DNA of 64,000 nucleotides, taken from the sequence record OR776998. The stretch is one strand, 5' to 3'. Source of the DNA: Escherichia phage YX22. The position numbers and the translations under genes are program-made. The notes beneath the pieces were generated by a model. The model did not search any database. It had not been told where the DNA came from and saw nothing but the letters and a program-made list of their open reading frames with translations. Of this stretch, positions 44,015 to 48,259 are shown piece after piece (the first letter of the stretch is position 1; each line of letters starts with the position of its first letter).

Positions 44015-44584
44015 ATGCACATTAACACAGCAATCATGAAACACATTATTCCTTTGTTAGCAAAATACGAAGGGGAACGCGCCACGAAAATCCCTTTTGG
44101 AACAATCACCGATGAAGTGAAACGCCTGACAGGTAAAAGTATCAATTTCCGTCGCGTTATTGAATCTGCGTTAGAGTTGGCCCGTTCTGATTTACGAAAT
44201 CCAACATTTTCATTTAATATTGACATAACTTCTTCACTTCGACAAGAAATGGAAGAATCATCACAAGCGCGGCGCAATCGTTTCCGTCATTTATATGTTC
44301 GTAACGAATTCTCTGAAGGTCGTGTTGGTATGAAACTGGAGTCTATTCGTTCTGACATTTGCTTCACTGTCAACTATGTTTTAGAGCCAGAAAGCGGGCG
44401 CATTTATTTTGGTGCGATTATCGGTTTCTATGGGAACTCTATTAATGGTTGGGCAGAACGTGTTGGATTAAAAGAAACCCAGAACACTCATTCCACACCT
44501 TCTACCCATTATATGACGCATGAAGCTGCTGGCGAATATGTTTACCTTCTGCGTCGTATTGTGAAGTTAGAAGTGTTAAAATAA
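44015..44584 (+). CDS. hypothetical protein, first gene of the RNA/tRNA unit
   Basis: 189-aa ORF. No motif recognised. Confidence 0.6.
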   Translation: MHINTAIMKHIIPLLAKYEGERATKIPFGTITDEVKRLTGKSINFRRVIESALELARSDLRNPTFSFNIDITSSLRQEMEESSQARRNRFRHLYVRNEFSEGRVGMKLESIRSDICFTVNYVLEPESGRIYFGAIIGFYGNSINGWAERVGLKETQNTHSTPSTHYMTHEAAGEYVYLLRRIVKLEVLK

Positions 44585-44591
44585 CGCTTTA

Positions 44592-44615
44592 TTCAATAAA
44601 GAATTGCAGTAAAGT
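44592..44615 (+). promoter_or_regulatory. weak TTCAAT-N12-TAAAGT element
   Basis: The box is perfect, but the spacing and the -10 element are off-consensus. Confidence 0.25.
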
Positions 44616-44641
44616 TAGTTGCATGGAAGGGAGGGAACACT

Positions 44642-44788
44642 ATGTTTTACATGATGTTACTCCTCATCCTCCTGATCGGGATTACCTTTACTCTCCTGGG
44701 TCTACCCGATCAGTCTGGTAAACAGACGCCCACTTCGGCGCATCCGGTTTTGAGTGAAGGTTCGTCCGCACTGCTGTGGGCAGTGTAG
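44642..44788 (+). CDS. small membrane peptide (48 aa)
   Basis: Below the ORF-track cutoff. Strong GGGAGGG SD. MFYMMLLLILLIGITFTLLGL is a TM helix. Confidence 0.5.
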   Translation: MFYMMLLLILLIGITFTLLGLPDQSGKQTPTSAHPVLSEGSSALLWAV

Positions 44789-44989
44789 CTCAAAGAGGAG
44801 AGGATTTTTCAAATTAGCTGGGCTGTAGTAAAGTATTAAACACGAGGCGAATAGCGCGGTGGTAGTAGGGCTGGAACCCGAAACCAGGAAAGCCCAGTCT
44901 CAGGGCACCGTGACGAATAGAGGCGTAATATCAACCTCGCTGGTGTCGGTGGACGCACTGACCGTCGGAGAACGAAACCCCCTGTTGTA

Positions 44990-45079
44990 GCGTGATTAGC
45001 TCAGATGCTTGAGAGCGCCCCGTTGGCGAGTCGACACCAACATATAGGGGAGGACGGATCTGCCAGGTTCCATCACGCC
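44990..45079 (+). ncRNA. tRNA-like module (aberrant anticodon and T arms)
   Basis: Perfect 7-bp acceptor GCGTGAT/ATCACGC and a D arm TA-GCTC..GAGC. The anticodon arm is replaced by a 9-bp arm with a 10-nt loop. Confidence 0.35.
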
Positions 45080-45765
45080 GACAACATTATGAGTCTTCGT
45101 AGAGGGTTCATAATGTTGCGTCAAAGGGCAACACAGGCTCCTGTTGGTAGAATTAACTTGATTCATAGTTCCTGCTGATCTTCCCGGATTCGAAGGAGCA
45201 CCAACAGGCGAGGCCGGATGCGTAAGTTCCGGCAAAACGATGGTGGCACCCTCGCCAACAAAATAAAAGGTTTTATCAATAACGGGTTACAAAGTATAGT
45301 TAACCCACTGAACGGCAAGCTGTTTGAGTCCTGGTCACTCATAGCGTTGTGAACTAAGACAGGTACGTTTAGGACTCAAACAGGTTTTCGTTGTGCGTGA
45401 CTTTGCGGGTTTTTAGAAACTGACCAAGCAAATAAATGCTAATGATTCCGAAGTTCTGATGGCGGCGTAATAGCCTATAAGTCAGCGGGGTATTCCAGTT
45501 CCCTGTAACAGAATCTGGCGCATCGCGGCCCTGAGATGTGATTAATAAGTCAGGGCATACAATGACAATTCATTCACATGATAACTTGTCAGCAATCTGT
45601 GAAATTGTTTGTAGGCATACGAACAAGAGGTAATTCGAGGGAGAATCGGCTCCTACCGTGTAACAGACCAAGTGACGTACCACTAAACCGTCCCGGGCGG
45701 TCGAAATGTGGGGAGATGAGAGTGGTCCCCTGAAGTTATCAGTTGAATGAATTGTTAAATAAAAT

Positions 45766-45891
45766 GCCGTTACATCTGACTGTCCAAAGGGGATAATCTC
45801 CTGAGTAAGCAGAGGTGGGTTGCCTAAGTCAGATGGGATGTAAGGTCAACGCTGGCCGAACATTTGGGTTCGACTCCCTAAAACGGCACCA
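45766..45891 (+). ncRNA. 126-nt tRNA-like RNA ending in ACCA
   Basis: GCCGTT/AACGGC acceptor, GGGTTCGACTCCC T arm, and an encoded A-CCA. The core is expanded by a 9-bp helix (45773-81 with 45827-35). Confidence 0.4.
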
Positions 45892-46804
45892 CATCTTTGA
45901 GGATATTCTCACGAGTATCTTGAAAGATGTGAGCGAAGTCTTGCCATCAGCCCTGATCCCTGGCAGGTGAAGGGCACACAAATCGAAGTGCCTTGACAAT
46001 TTATCTTAAACCCAAAGGTTGATCTACAAATTGGGCGGCCAATCCGGTGGACGATAACAGCATATTGGGCCATACTGTTGAGTCAGGGCACTTCGATTTG
46101 TGAACTTGAGAGAGCATTGGGTGAAATAGACCATGCCTTGCAGATTGCGATGCCTACACATTCCGGACACTGGTGGGCACCAAGAAGAACTCAGTAGCAG
46201 ACGAGCCATCAGGGTTAGCTACCCGGCGCGGCGAGGACTGGGAGGCCGAACTAAGGGGAAACCCGAGACAGGCGTAGTATTCTCAAGTTCACAAAATGAA
46301 GAGCATTTAAAGAGTTCGATTCTCTTTCAGGCCATTCGTGGTGTGATGTGAGTCATGAATGTTCTTCATCTTTGGGTGATTTTATGTTGCCGGGCTATCA
46401 ACCCATGCTTGCTGGAGCAACCAGCGGCTCTGAATCAACCAGCCAGCCTCGTTTGGTCCGAGCGTTAGAGGACAAGTTGCTTCTACATAGAAGCTGCGAG
46501 TTTTAACATTTGGTTGCAACTTTGATGGCTCTGGATTTTATAAACCATGTCTATGGGTGACGCGGGATCTTTAGTACCAGAGCTATCAAAGTTGTGTCCA
46601 ACCCGATCTTGCAAGCCCGTATCCCTGTATGGTTAAGACTTGCAAGTGGAAAGCCCTGGAAAAATAAACGCCTGTGGCGAGGCTATGGTGCAAGCCAAAG
46701 ACCCACAGAAGCGCATGCCGTGAGGCGCACAAACAGGCATGCATGAACTGATCATGCACAAACGGGATAAAGGGTTGACAGTCCTTGGTTGGTCACAATA
46801 ATTT

Positions 46805-46881
46805 GGTCCTGTAGCTCAGTCGGTTAGAGCAGTGAACTCATAATTCATTGGTCGTTGGTTCAAATCCAACCAGGATCACCA
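46805..46881 (+). tRNA. tRNA with CAU anticodon (Met by anticodon; ileX-like, so possibly Ile2 reading AUA)
   Basis: Full cloverleaf: GGTCCTG/CAGGATC acceptor, GCTC..GAGC D arm, GTGAA-CTCATAA-TTCAT, GTTGG-TTCAAAT-CCAAC, encoded CCA. The variable loop TTGGTCG matches E. coli ileX. Confidence 0.9.
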
Positions 46882-47134
46882 TGTTAAGGGGTGTGAAACA
46901 TAACACTCCGACAAACACAGTAAGCGTTGCAGCCAGCTGTGTATAAAATGGGGATGACTCCGCATCGGAAACGATGCCCCAACTTCCAGAAATGGTCGGG
47001 CGCAAAGCCTGTAAAGTTCCAGGAGATCGAACCAGAAGGCACTGGTCGCCAGTTAACCAATCGGCGCTGAGAAGCGCGGGGAGTTGGGCTACGGCAGATC
47101 AAATGCTCAATCGGGTGTGAAGCCCGTCCAAATT

Positions 47135-47223
47135 GGAAGGTTGCCCGAGAGGTTTAAGGGACTCGACTGCTAATCGAGTGGGGCTTTTAGCCCCCGAAGG
47201 TTCGAATCCTTCACCTTCCGCCA
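47135..47223 (+). tRNA. tRNA-Ser (GCU)
   Basis: Class II cloverleaf: GGAAGGT/ACCTTCC, CTCGA-CTGCTAA-TCGAG, long variable arm GGGGC-tttta-GCCCC, GAAGG-TTCGAAT-CCTTC, G-CCA. Confidence 0.9.
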
Positions 47224-47442
47224 AATTACGGGCGTGACTTCCTGAAGAGTTAGAAGATGTGCATGTCGACTCTCTCTCGTAATCGGGGTGTTTAGGAAGT
47301 TAAGAAAATCGCGGCGAGGATAGTGAAATGCAAATAGCTTTCTCTACGTCGACGACTTCAGGTTCGACTCCTGACGCGCTCTCCCATAGGGTAGTACCAG
47401 TGCAAGCGTGTAGTCTTTCAACCCATCCCATCGATGTGGTGT

Positions 47443-47471
47443 AGCCGGATATCCTATCCGGCTTTCTTTTT
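47443..47471 (+). terminator. rho-independent terminator ending the RNA/tRNA unit
   Basis: AGCCGGATA-tcc-TATCCGGCT followed by TTCTTTTT. Confidence 0.75.
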
Positions 47472-47528
47472 ATCCCTGTCTTATTATCTTCTTATCGACC
47501 CAAGCATGTTCTCCTTTATCGTAGTTTG

Positions 47529-47555
47529 TTCAATGATACAAAGGGGGTTTAAAAT
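47529..47555 (+). promoter_or_regulatory. TTCAAT-N15-TAAAAT promoter-like element
   Basis: Upstream of the 47597 gene. It overlaps the GGGGGTT/AACCCCC hairpin. Confidence 0.4.
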
Positions 47556-47596
47556 TTAACCGTTAACCCCCCTATCATAGATTTGAGGATACACTA

Positions 47597-48259
47597 ATGC
47601 GTAATGTTTCTATCTGGGAATTGAACGAAGTGATTTCCCATGACACCCCTCCAATTGTCAGACTCTTCCAATACAAGGGTGTCAAGCGCACTCTGAATGA
47701 GTTCCTGTCGCCTGTTTACGTCTACCGTGATGGCGGGTTCTTCCGCCGCGATAAAAACATCCCGAACCTTGGTATGACGTTTGATTTGAGTATCAAAGGC
47801 CAGGTTGTATTGATGGGTTATGGTAGCCTAGAACAATCTGAGAAAGGCCAGGGCGCTCCACTTATGGTCTTCGGTTCGTTTGAACAAGCCGTGCACTGGC
47901 TGATCAGAAACGGATATGATTTCTATGGCGAAGAAAGCGCCAATTGGCGTCGTCGCAAGGTCAAGTCTGTTAATCTGGTGGATTTGAATCTGATGTACCA
48001 GGCCATGGCTCGCGAGTACGAAAAGAATCTCGTCAAGCCTGTCGCCCAGGAGAACAATAACAATGTTGTTAACGACGCAACTGAGTCTTCTCATCATGAC
48101 GTGAACATCGTTCCAGCCTGTGAAACGAAAGCGCCGACACCGCCCACTCCTCCGGCCAGTCGTGTTCTGAATGATCAGGGCGCTCCGGTAAAACAAAAGG
48201 TCAAGAAGCCGACTTTCATGGAAAACATGATGAAGTTCCTTCGTCTGTTCAAGAAATAA
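47597..48259 (+). CDS. hypothetical protein
   Basis: 220-aa ORF with a GAGGA SD. Confidence 0.65.
   Translation: MRNVSIWELNEVISHDTPPIVRLFQYKGVKRTLNEFLSPVYVYRDGGFFRRDKNIPNLGMTFDLSIKGQVVLMGYGSLEQSEKGQGAPLMVFGSFEQAVHWLIRNGYDFYGEESANWRRRKVKSVNLVDLNLMYQAMAREYEKNLVKPVAQENNNNVVNDATESSHHDVNIVPACETKAPTPPTPPASRVLNDQGAPVKQKVKKPTFMENMMKFLRLFKK

Follow-up and report, generated by a model that had tools for sequence, protein, structure and literature searches.

The helix described here lies in a stretch of 64,000 nucleotides (nt) from Escherichia phage YX22 (sequence record OR776998; the whole stretch is hereafter the window), in which two arms, CACAAATCGAAGTGCCTTGAC (45977-45997) and GTCAGGGCACTTCGATTTGTG (46082-46102), pair across a spacer of 84 nt. 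We find that this helix, which we call helix A, is maintained by selection on RNA base pairing, and that the hairpin it closes is a single-copy, cassette-like unit. Helix A sits in a 2.2-kb gap (44585-46804) that contains no open reading frame (ORF) of at least 150 codons, upstream of a transfer RNA (tRNA) gene, tRNA-Met. We give roughly even chances to the reading that helix A closes a module of ~126 nt in a chain of RNAs transcribed together with tRNAs, with the helix probably serving as a processing site for host RNase III as well.

Selection on the base pairing of helix A

Helix A consists of 20 Watson-Crick base pairs and a single wobble, U45993.G46086, and 16 of its Watson-Crick pairs are uninterrupted (45977-45992 with 46087-46102). 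An earlier note on this DNA had described a 21-base-pair (bp) inverted repeat enclosing 84 nt, with one G.U pair and 16 consecutive Watson-Crick pairs, and all of this holds, including the positions of the arms. The note also called it the longest helix. That is right for near-perfect stems, the 16-pair run being the longest exact stem in the window when loops of up to 400 nt are allowed, but not overall: an imperfect hairpin (46510-46534/46577-46601) has 24 pairs, more than helix A, but with one mismatch and three G.U pairs. The ~2-kb region around helix A holds four of the window's seven longest exact stems. Within the window the arm sequence matches at the two arm sites only, with a chance expectation of 0, and a 141-nt segment folds at -52.8 kcal/mol compared with -32.1 +/- 3.5 kcal/mol for shuffled sequences (z = -6.0; none of 200 shuffles as good).

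Selection on pairing is seen in an alignment of 17 unique copies of the hairpin from Agtrevirus-like, Taipeivirus and Kuttervirus phages, of which a smaller version with 10 sequences was also made. Across the 17 copies, 98.5% of the cells of helix A are paired, compared with 16-52% when the partner strand is slid by 1-3 columns, and none of 500 shuffles reached either this percentage or the covariation score of the helix. In the inner part of the helix, each of the 14 pairs tested is paired in 17 of 17 sequences. Both bases have changed with pairing kept at 45990:46089 (G-C/U-A), 45992:46087 (C-G/U-A) and 45996:46083 (A-U/G-C), and a fourth doubly changed pair, 45997:46082 (C-G to G-C), was read directly from the alignment. 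With these four pairs and the slid controls, the covariation analysis proposed in the earlier note comes out in favour of a helix.

The remaining variation reveals the strand. Pair 45993:46086 is U.G in 10 of the 17 copies and C-G in the other seven; pair 45991:46088 alternates between C-G and U.G, the latter in one sequence; and in helix B, the stem that begins immediately after arm 2, four positions alternate between G.U and either G-C or A-U. On the minus strand these wobble states of helices A and B would be A.C mismatches, which points to a plus-strand transcript, the same strand as the tRNAs. Taken together, the compensatory changes and the strand-specific wobbles argue for an RNA structure rather than a miniature inverted-repeat transposable element (MITE), an ORF or a DNA palindrome. 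Among the options listed in the earlier note, the domain-closing stem is supported: the helix is kept in three genera with compensatory and strand-specific wobble changes, and it delimits a cassette-like unit.

The arms and the loop differ in conservation, with an 11-nt core of each arm invariant in all copies and the loop diverging to ~60-70% identity. Comparison settles no helix within the 84-nt interior, where AACAG/CTGTT and CCCAA/TTGGG are mostly invariant or shifted in register between genera. The first of these, AACAG (46056-46060) with CTGTT (46075-46079), is a small hairpin that the earlier note had picked out; it is present in the window, but comparison neither supports nor refutes it, as variation is confined to one of its five pairs, which is broken in 14 of the 17 unique relatives. 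The consensus fold of the module lacks this hairpin.

The window comes from an Ackermannviridae (Vi1-like) phage of the subfamily Aglimvirinae. The region is 95.5% identical to that of Escherichia phage PC3, and the hairpin itself is 100% identical to that of Agtrevirus phage vB_CECAV_050. Hairpins of this kind occur in 136 phage records, at one place per record and at the same syntenic position in three genera, in identity bands of ~99% (Agtrevirus-like), ~92% (Taipeivirus) and ~71% (Kuttervirus). A covariance model built from the hairpin alignment gave one strong match per phage locus (146-165 bits), no second copy elsewhere in the window or in related loci, and no match in Limestonevirus, Miltonvirus or the unrelated phages examined. 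A weak match of the model falls on helix C, the stem of a downstream hairpin whose arms resemble those of helix A in sequence (A1 with C1, and A2 with C2).

Wider searches added little to this distribution. BLAST found no similarity to the hairpin outside Ackermannviridae, and the hairpin is absent from 5,426 complete Escherichia coli genomes. A metagenome scan for both invariant arm cores returned seven loci, one of them a true homologue (L026); the other six are unrelated hairpins with an 11-mer in common by chance. A scan of bacterial genomes with the 14-mer CAAATCGAAGTGCC gave 120 single-arm matches in unrelated taxa and no hairpin, and is uninformative, as ~4,400 chance matches are expected in the 596 Gb scanned. 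Rfam has no family over the hairpin, either at the gathering score or at E <= 10, in three nested ranges; matches on other long hairpins of the region were dismissed as chance matches to microRNA precursors. A protein-coding gene over the hairpin was likewise rejected: no stop-free frame is conserved, and stop-free stretches differ in frame and extent between genera. Loop insertions and deletions between genera are of 1, 1, 5 and 1 nt, and no ORF is kept open and in frame across relatives.

At its upstream boundary the hairpin behaves as a cassette. In two lineages, the Marshall-like Kuttervirus and the KpS110/Menlow-like Taipeivirus phages, unrelated modules replace the sequence upstream of the hairpin, and in both the junction of the swap lies exactly at the first base of arm 1. 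Genes for HNH/homing endonucleases lie inside the homologous array of Klebsiella phage 0507-KN2-1, Escherichia phage PhaxI and Salmonella phage pSal-SNUABM-02. By analogy with SegB, which drives exchange in the tRNA cluster of phage T4 (PMC2330249), such insertions could account for the way modules have been exchanged in mosaic fashion.

A second partner for arm 2

The end of arm 2 has a further partner that the earlier note had missed. The hexamer CACAAA opens both arm 1 and hairpin C (46290-46295), and as these positions equal the first six bases of arm 1, the TTTGTG end of arm 2 can pair with either. The alternative pairing, 46097-46102 with 46290-46295, is perfect in 17 of 17 unique sequences. 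At its one variable position, the downstream pair 46101:46291 is kept in all 17 (C-G in 10, U-A in seven), compared with only 12 of 17 for the corresponding pairing with arm 1, 45978:46101. The inner 15 bp of helix A (45983-45997 with 46082-46096) are constitutive, and the outer 6 bp are exchangeable, lengthening helix B when they change partner.

Constrained folding places the two conformers only 1.7 kcal/mol apart in the window. In Taipeivirus the extended helix B is favoured by ~6 kcal/mol and in Kuttervirus the full helix A by 5-8 kcal/mol, the value for conformer 1 of SJ3 being unreliable because a non-canonical A.C pair was enforced. In these models, the junction between helices A, B and C can shift. 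The likeness between the arms of A and C could be the trace of an old hairpin duplication.

Phage May and some Kuttervirus phages retain helix C although the sequences of its arms are entirely different there. The loop of helix C may be as small as a UUCG tetraloop or hold one of two unrelated inserts of ~50 nt that are common across genus boundaries; in the window it carries a T-arm-like hairpin at 46310-46326 (AAGAG-TTCGATT-CTCTT), and the loop cassette differs between phages.

The arrangement at arm 2 recurs. In this shared-arm layout, the 3′ arm of a hairpin overlaps the 5′ strand of a long-range stem that closes the next domain, and the 5′ arm of the hairpin resembles the 3′ strand of that closing stem (CACAA... 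and ...TTGTG motifs). It is found at helix A, at the imperfect hairpin 46510-46601 with the stem 46594-46604/46790-46800, and in tag-bearing elements of phage DS8 (L010 1925-2121) and of a lambdoid prophage (L151 2402-2470 and 2646-2860).

The surrounding array and its tmRNA-like member

An equivalent gap of 1.7-2.7 kb, from the same ORF to tRNA-Met, is present in every Ackermannviridae genus examined. In the window its flanks are a 189-codon ORF on one side and tRNA-Met followed by tRNA-Ser on the other. In public records the gap is either left without annotation or given small ‘hypothetical proteins’, on one strand or the other, that disagree between records. The elements that we recognize in and around it are collected in Table 1.

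Table 1. Elements of the array around helix A, in window coordinates
Element	Positions	Strand	Remarks
Promoter-like box	45273-45300	+	TTATCA-16-TATAGT, inside TCAATAA-N-AGTATAGT; predicted start ~45307; conserved across genera
tmRNA-like tag RNA	45307-45562	+	hairpin 45311-45392, then tag frame 45438-45470; stop codons 45468-45473
tRNA-like domain, 126 nt	45766-45891	+	6-bp acceptor-like stem, two long arms, T-arm GGG-UUCGACU-CCC, single-stranded ACCA 3′ end
Hairpin, 18-19 bp	45890-45931	+	directly after ACCA; in relatives the loop holds inserts of variable size, some with T-arms
Helix A, arm 1	45977-45997	+	45983-45997 constitutive; 45977-45982 (CACAAA) exchangeable
Interior of enclosed module, 84 nt	45998-46081	+	3′ half (~46050-46081) nearly invariant
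Helix A, arm 2	46082-46102	+	last 6 nt (46097-46102, TTTGTG) also pair with 46290-46295
Helix B, 5′ strand AACTTGAGA	46103-46111	+	directly after arm 2, no linker
Domain B interior, 169 nt	46112-46280	+	conserved in three genera; shortened to ~24 nt in Klebsiella phage May, which keeps stem B
Helix B, 3′ strand TCTCAAGTT	46281-46289	+	92.8% of cells paired; G.U changes valid on the plus strand only
Hairpin C	46290-46372	+	stem ~46293-46309/46356-46372; follows helix B without linker
Imperfect hairpin, 24 bp	46510-46601	+	3′ arm overlaps 5′ closing strand of next module
Terminal structured RNA, ~210 nt	46594-46800	+	closed by 46594-46604/46790-46800
tRNA-Met (CAT)	46805-46881	+
tRNA-Ser (GCT)	47135-47223	+
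Intrinsic terminator	47443-47470	+	9-bp stem followed by a T-run

The array and the tRNAs lie on the same strand, GC skew is positive throughout the gap, and downstream of 45300 a terminator scan reported 47443-47470 as the sole terminator-like site on the plus strand. The hairpin was considered as an intrinsic terminator and rejected: its loop is 84 nt long, its 3′ flank reads AACTTGAGAG, and the scan did not report it. Boxes of the form TCAATAA-N10-13-TAnAnT occur four times in the window (43954, 44593, 45276 and 55052), always on the plus strand and just upstream of a gene start, and boxes of the same type are conserved at equivalent positions in other genera; from this sequence pattern they probably represent a class of phage promoter. 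A near-consensus sigma-70-type promoter (TTGACA-16-AATAAT, 11 of 12 positions) lies at 46775-46802 on the plus strand; it ends 3 nt before tRNA-Met and overlaps the strand that closes the terminal RNA module on its 3′ side.

At its upstream end the array contains what resembles a transfer-messenger RNA (tmRNA). The tag reads GCU AAU GAU UCC GAA GUU CUG AUG GCG GCG UAA UAG, or ANDSEVLMAA followed by two stop codons, and the tags of other phages (ANDNTFLAVA, ANDNAYLMVA, ANDDVVLMAA and ANDSEMRVAA) have the frame conserved with synonymous codon changes. ARAGORN is negative on the tag unit, which also falls below every Rfam gathering threshold. The Rfam tmRNA covariance models give weak matches over the tag and over the T-arm/acceptor part; those on the tag region of the window score 24 and 19 bits, and the best tmRNA scores are 24-27 bits against a gathering score of 47. 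At 70-83% identity, the tag module is common to T1-like, N4-like, Chaseviridae and lambdoid phages, and it occurs in ~470 phage records of unrelated families and in prophages of 138 of the 5,426 E. coli genomes. One such prophage was examined, and there the module stands between Q and the holin gene. A host origin of the array was rejected, as E. coli genomes match the tag module alone, in prophages only and not at host ssrA.

The tRNA-like domain follows separately, with both acceptor strands 3′ of the tag. Its pair 3:70 is C-G (U-A in DS8 and in the lambdoid element) and not G3.U70, and 45766-45891 therefore lacks the element by which tmRNA is identified for alanine. The tag elements of phage DS8 (L010 ~1995-2121) and of the lambdoid prophage (L151 ~2722-2860; Rfam tmRNA E = 6.5e-5) finish with similar domains. 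Helix A begins 86 nt 3′ of the ACCA end, outside the tmRNA-like unit and presumably in the same transcript. Among the flanking proteins there is neither an SmpB-like protein nor an RNA-processing enzyme; none has a Pfam function, and all of their PHROGs are of unknown function. In a survey by the authors of the tmRNA Website (PMC4131195), mycobacteriophages and Bacillus phage G were the only phages listed with ssrA, and the literature searched contained no description of an Ackermannviridae non-coding RNA or of a tmRNA-like RNA in an enterobacterial phage.

At the other end of the gap, directly 5′ of tRNA-Met, the terminal RNA of ~210 nt surpasses the rest of the gap in conservation. Each of the five genera examined has it, and it is nearly invariant even in Limestonevirus and Miltonvirus; 14 of its 56 consensus pairs show compensatory changes, and the single-stranded tracts GGAAAGCCCUGGAAAAAUAAAC, GAACUGAUC and CAAACGGGAUAAA are invariant. 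No Rfam family matches it. Met and Ser are the only tRNAs of the window, with Trp, Asn and Tyr (and Ile) tRNAs between them in close relatives, and the spacers 46882-47134 and 47224-47442 are free of ORFs. A T-arm-like hairpin in the second spacer, TCAGG-TTCGACT-CCTGA at 47358, may, by its sequence, be a tRNA remnant or a tRNA-like element.

Between the conserved elements lie points of insertion. The loops of the hairpins 45890-45931 and 46290-46372 accept unrelated cassettes across genera (relatives L003, L005 and L006), among them the T-arm-like inserts GGTTCGAATCC or GGTTCGAGTCC in IME250 and SJ3. Serratia phage IME250 has another insert (L003 2514-2727), placed between the equivalents of window positions ~46490 and ~46500, and this one matches STnc100, an Rfam family of Salmonella small RNA (sRNA), at 48.7 bits against a gathering score of 47. 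The ~195 nt at 45563-45757, between the tag RNA and the tRNA-like domain, also form a variable cassette, which is closed by a 23-nt inverted repeat (45565-45587/45733-45755, 91% complementary); Agtrevirus phage vB_CECAV_050 lacks it, and other genera have different sequence in its place. Further upstream, the segment 44800-45260 is conserved, structured and ORF-free, with tRNA-like pieces (TAGCTCAGA...GAGAGC, and GGCGAGG at 45205 with CCTCGCC at 45250); Kuttervirus has an extra T-arm (GTGTGGTTCGATTCCGCAC) at the equivalent of ~45243. The sole credible protein gene within the gap is a 48-codon hydrophobic ORF at 44642-44788 on the plus strand (MFYMMLLLILLIGITFTLLG...), which has a GGAGGG ribosome-binding site, is conserved in three genera and matches phrog_8415 (unknown function).

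Proposed processing of the array, alternative readings and known systems

The reading that we prefer takes the hairpin as one link in a processed chain. The phage would transcribe a protein-free series of RNAs rightwards from the box at 45273-45300 to the terminator at 47443-47470, in the order tmRNA-like RNA, tRNA-like domain, hairpin modules A, B and C, 210-nt RNA, tRNA-Met and tRNA-Ser. A polycistronic precursor is proposed because of the context of the array, with its box, its strand and its single plus-strand terminator-like site, and because of a precedent in T4, where a precursor of ~1.75 kb contains eight tRNAs and the stable species I and II RNAs (PMC2330249). Helix A would insulate the fold of its module from its neighbours. 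RNase III acts on intramolecular stems, cutting both strands to leave 2-nt 3′ overhangs (PMC6212723, PMC8708148), and given this specificity the host enzyme would cut helix A on both strands with a 2-nt stagger. With this cut, the tmRNA-like and tRNA-like RNAs upstream would part from the modules downstream, and the enclosed domain would come free as a hairpin RNA with a short stem; more speculatively, the leftover 3′ arm might then re-pair with 46290-46295 and extend helix B. Helix A, the most perfect ~21-bp duplex of the presumed precursor, is the best candidate site, as the other long stems of the array carry more mismatches and G.U pairs. RNase III of the E. coli type asks for an intramolecular duplex that spans some two turns, or at least ~20 bp, with no large interruptions, and helix A has 21 bp, of which the outer 6 have a competing partner, the full helix being predicted as disfavoured in Taipeivirus. 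By analogy with such substrates, a site of double-stranded RNA processing, one of the options in the earlier note, is a plausible mechanism and the one we prefer.

Several points weigh against this reading. We infer all three of its components, the promoter, the co-transcription and the cutting by RNase III. The second promoter-like site at 46775-46802 means that the tRNAs need not depend on a long transcript. Most of the double changes in helix A map to a single split, that of Kuttervirus from the rest, and so represent few independent events. With the preference predicted for Taipeivirus, helix A would retain only 15 bp, a short duplex for RNase III. The invariance of the arm cores and of the 3′ half of the loop exceeds the needs of a simple processing stem and hints at sequence-specific recognition. 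Finally, to judge from its absence from Limestonevirus and Miltonvirus, the module is accessory.

Some alternatives keep the RNA helix and differ in its use. Helix A might never be cut and might be an architectural element of a single large RNA (~45932-46800, at least ~870 nt) that stays unprocessed. Akin in kind to GOLLD and ROOL, this ‘ornate’ RNA would fold into one particle, perhaps a multimeric one, alongside the tRNAs of the phage. Structure is dense throughout this unbroken, ORF-free tract, in which no linkers part helices A, B and C, and its universally conserved 3′ part (46594-46800), more variable 5′ part and position next to tRNA-Met resemble the description of GOLLD and the occurrence of ROOL and GOLLD near phage tRNA islands (PMC12286853). 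Yet no GOLLD, ROOL or other Rfam model matches it, however permissive the filters, some genera have the 3′ module but not helix A, and the modules have been gained, lost and swapped independently (domain B in May, the loop cassettes and the upstream flank), which speaks for separable units; we consider a single uncut RNA unlikely. It is distinctly unlikely, in our estimate, that helix A is the processing gate of a ‘translation-hijack’ RNA operon in which cleavage by RNase III or partner exchange governs how the tmRNA-like RNA and the modules downstream are released and matured. That operon would represent an unrecognised, widespread class of phage tmRNA-like RNA, with an SsrA-type tag, a separate tRNA-like domain, non-canonical topology and no G3.U70, which would span Ackermannviridae and T1-like, N4-like, Chaseviridae and lambdoid phages and be made with accessory structured RNAs. 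The exchange of partners at arm 2 also lends itself to a folding guide or conformational switch, in which arm 1 would hold arm 2 during transcription until 46281-46295 is made and strand displacement shifts the outer 6 bp of arm 2 downstream, setting the junction or toggling between two states. The perfect alternative pairing in 17 of 17 copies, its U-A/C-G covariation against the 12 of 17 kept by 45978:46101, the small energy difference in the window and the recurrence of the shared-arm layout at 46510-46601/46594-46800 and in the DS8 and lambdoid prophage tag elements speak for such a device. It is nonetheless quite improbable: the predicted preference differs by genus (about -6 kcal/mol in Taipeivirus, +5 to +8 kcal/mol in Kuttervirus), so that no uniform switch is conserved, the second partner may be a by-product of an old hairpin duplication, and a transient helix has no use for a conserved 84-nt interior. 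More improbable still is a stand-alone, trans-acting sRNA, for example a regulator of host or phage messenger RNAs or a decoy for a host protein or defence system, with the stem protecting its ends. Invariant arm cores and a nearly invariant 3′ half of the loop are as expected of a recognition surface, the module behaves as a cassette, and other cassettes of the array include the STnc100 match in IME250; but the module has neither promoter nor terminator of its own, no U-run follows the stem (3′ flank AACTTGAG), and no target or partner was identified. Such an RNA is in any case compatible with the processing model, which would release it.

Two further alternatives place the function of the repeat in DNA. 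A protein-binding palindrome or cruciform, for example a target for recombination or a homing endonuclease or a signal for replication or packaging, would fit the invariant arm cores, the mosaic breakpoints at the base of the hairpin, the HNH endonuclease genes inserted in the region in some relatives and the annotation of arm 2 as ‘repeat_region’ in other records. However, the arms are 84-92 nt apart with a spacer of varying length, the U.G pair found in 10 of 17 copies and the other wobbles become A.C on the opposite strand and would be mismatches in a cruciform, the changes preserve pairs rather than identical half-sites, and the neighbouring elements of the chain all show covariation of the RNA type. 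The ‘repeat_region’ features mark a 21-22-nt arm only and not a genome terminus; a terminal repeat of the genome was itself rejected as an explanation, those features in the Kuttervirus records bering, rabagast and dinky being just arm 2. We regard a DNA-level function as very improbable. The arms might finally be the terminal inverted repeats of a MITE, the tiny insertion that the earlier note had also entertained, as 21-nt inverted termini around a short non-coding segment and cassette-like mosaicism would suggest. This is barely credible: there is one place per record in all 136 records, the region contains no direct repeats, the flanks GGGCA (45972-45976) and AACTT (46103-46107) show no target-site duplication, and the element is syntenic in three genera and evolves by compensatory change. 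The search for dispersed copies that the note had suggested for this case turned up no extra copy of the arms in the window, in related loci or in the 5,426 E. coli genomes.

In each genome examined, ~2 kb that are blank or misfilled in the annotation are a chain of selected RNA structures, which corrects that annotation. The hairpin supplies a clean, testable module boundary and a substrate for studying how an array of phage non-coding RNAs is processed and stabilised, its dependence on RNase III and the exchange of partners at the junction. The tmRNA-like gene, found in many phage families, and the 210-nt RNA bear on why phages carry tRNA islands and companion stable RNAs.

Among known systems, helix A resembles the RNase III processing stems of the 16S and 23S rRNA (ribosomal RNA) precursors and of T7 (R1.1-type) in form only. 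Like them, it is a long intramolecular duplex of about two turns, formed by sequences that flank structured RNA, here in a putative polycistronic precursor. Unlike them, it encloses 84 nt, compared with kilobases in rRNA and a small loop in T7; a rival pairing exists for its outer 6 bp, and the cores of its arms are invariant, which RNase III does not require. Species I of T4 is a substrate of RNase III in vitro. The tmRNA-like neighbour shares with SsrA tmRNA a tag with tandem stops (ANDSEVLMAA, compared with ANDENYALAA in E. coli) and a tRNA-like domain with ACCA; it differs in having its acceptor strands 3′ of the tag, which is neither the one-piece nor the known permuted topology, and in lacking the G.U at 3:70 needed for charging with alanine.

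The closest parallels in kind are stable RNAs encoded beside phage tRNA genes. Species I (rnaC) and species II (rnaD) of T4 are likewise structured, non-coding phage RNAs of ~120-140 nt with unknown function, and the fold of species I, with an acceptor-like stem, long arms and a T-arm, is like that of the tRNA-like module 45766-45891. They come from the same ~1.75-kb precursor as the T4 tRNAs, in a region with a homing endonuclease (PMC2330249). The covariance model of the hairpin found no match in the T4 tRNA cluster, species I and II included; the present array exceeds that cluster in size, with ~1.5 kb of RNA modules, and includes a tmRNA-like tag, and the hairpin module lacks a T-arm. GOLLD and ROOL are also large, protein-free structured phage RNAs of unknown function that adjoin tRNA genes; in GOLLD, which was found downstream of a tRNA-Met, the 3′ region is conserved and the 5′ region variable (PMC12286853). 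Their Rfam models gave no match at the gathering score or at E <= 10 with permissive filters (44300-47700 and 45890-46810), and the present array differs from them in modules that are exchanged and deleted independently and in a host range of enterobacterial Ackermannviridae. Without homology to any of these RNAs, the array nevertheless belongs in kind with the phage stable RNAs beside tRNA genes, T4 species I and II, GOLLD and ROOL, and it is this array, especially its cryptic tmRNA-like gene, that is more surprising than the hairpin alone.

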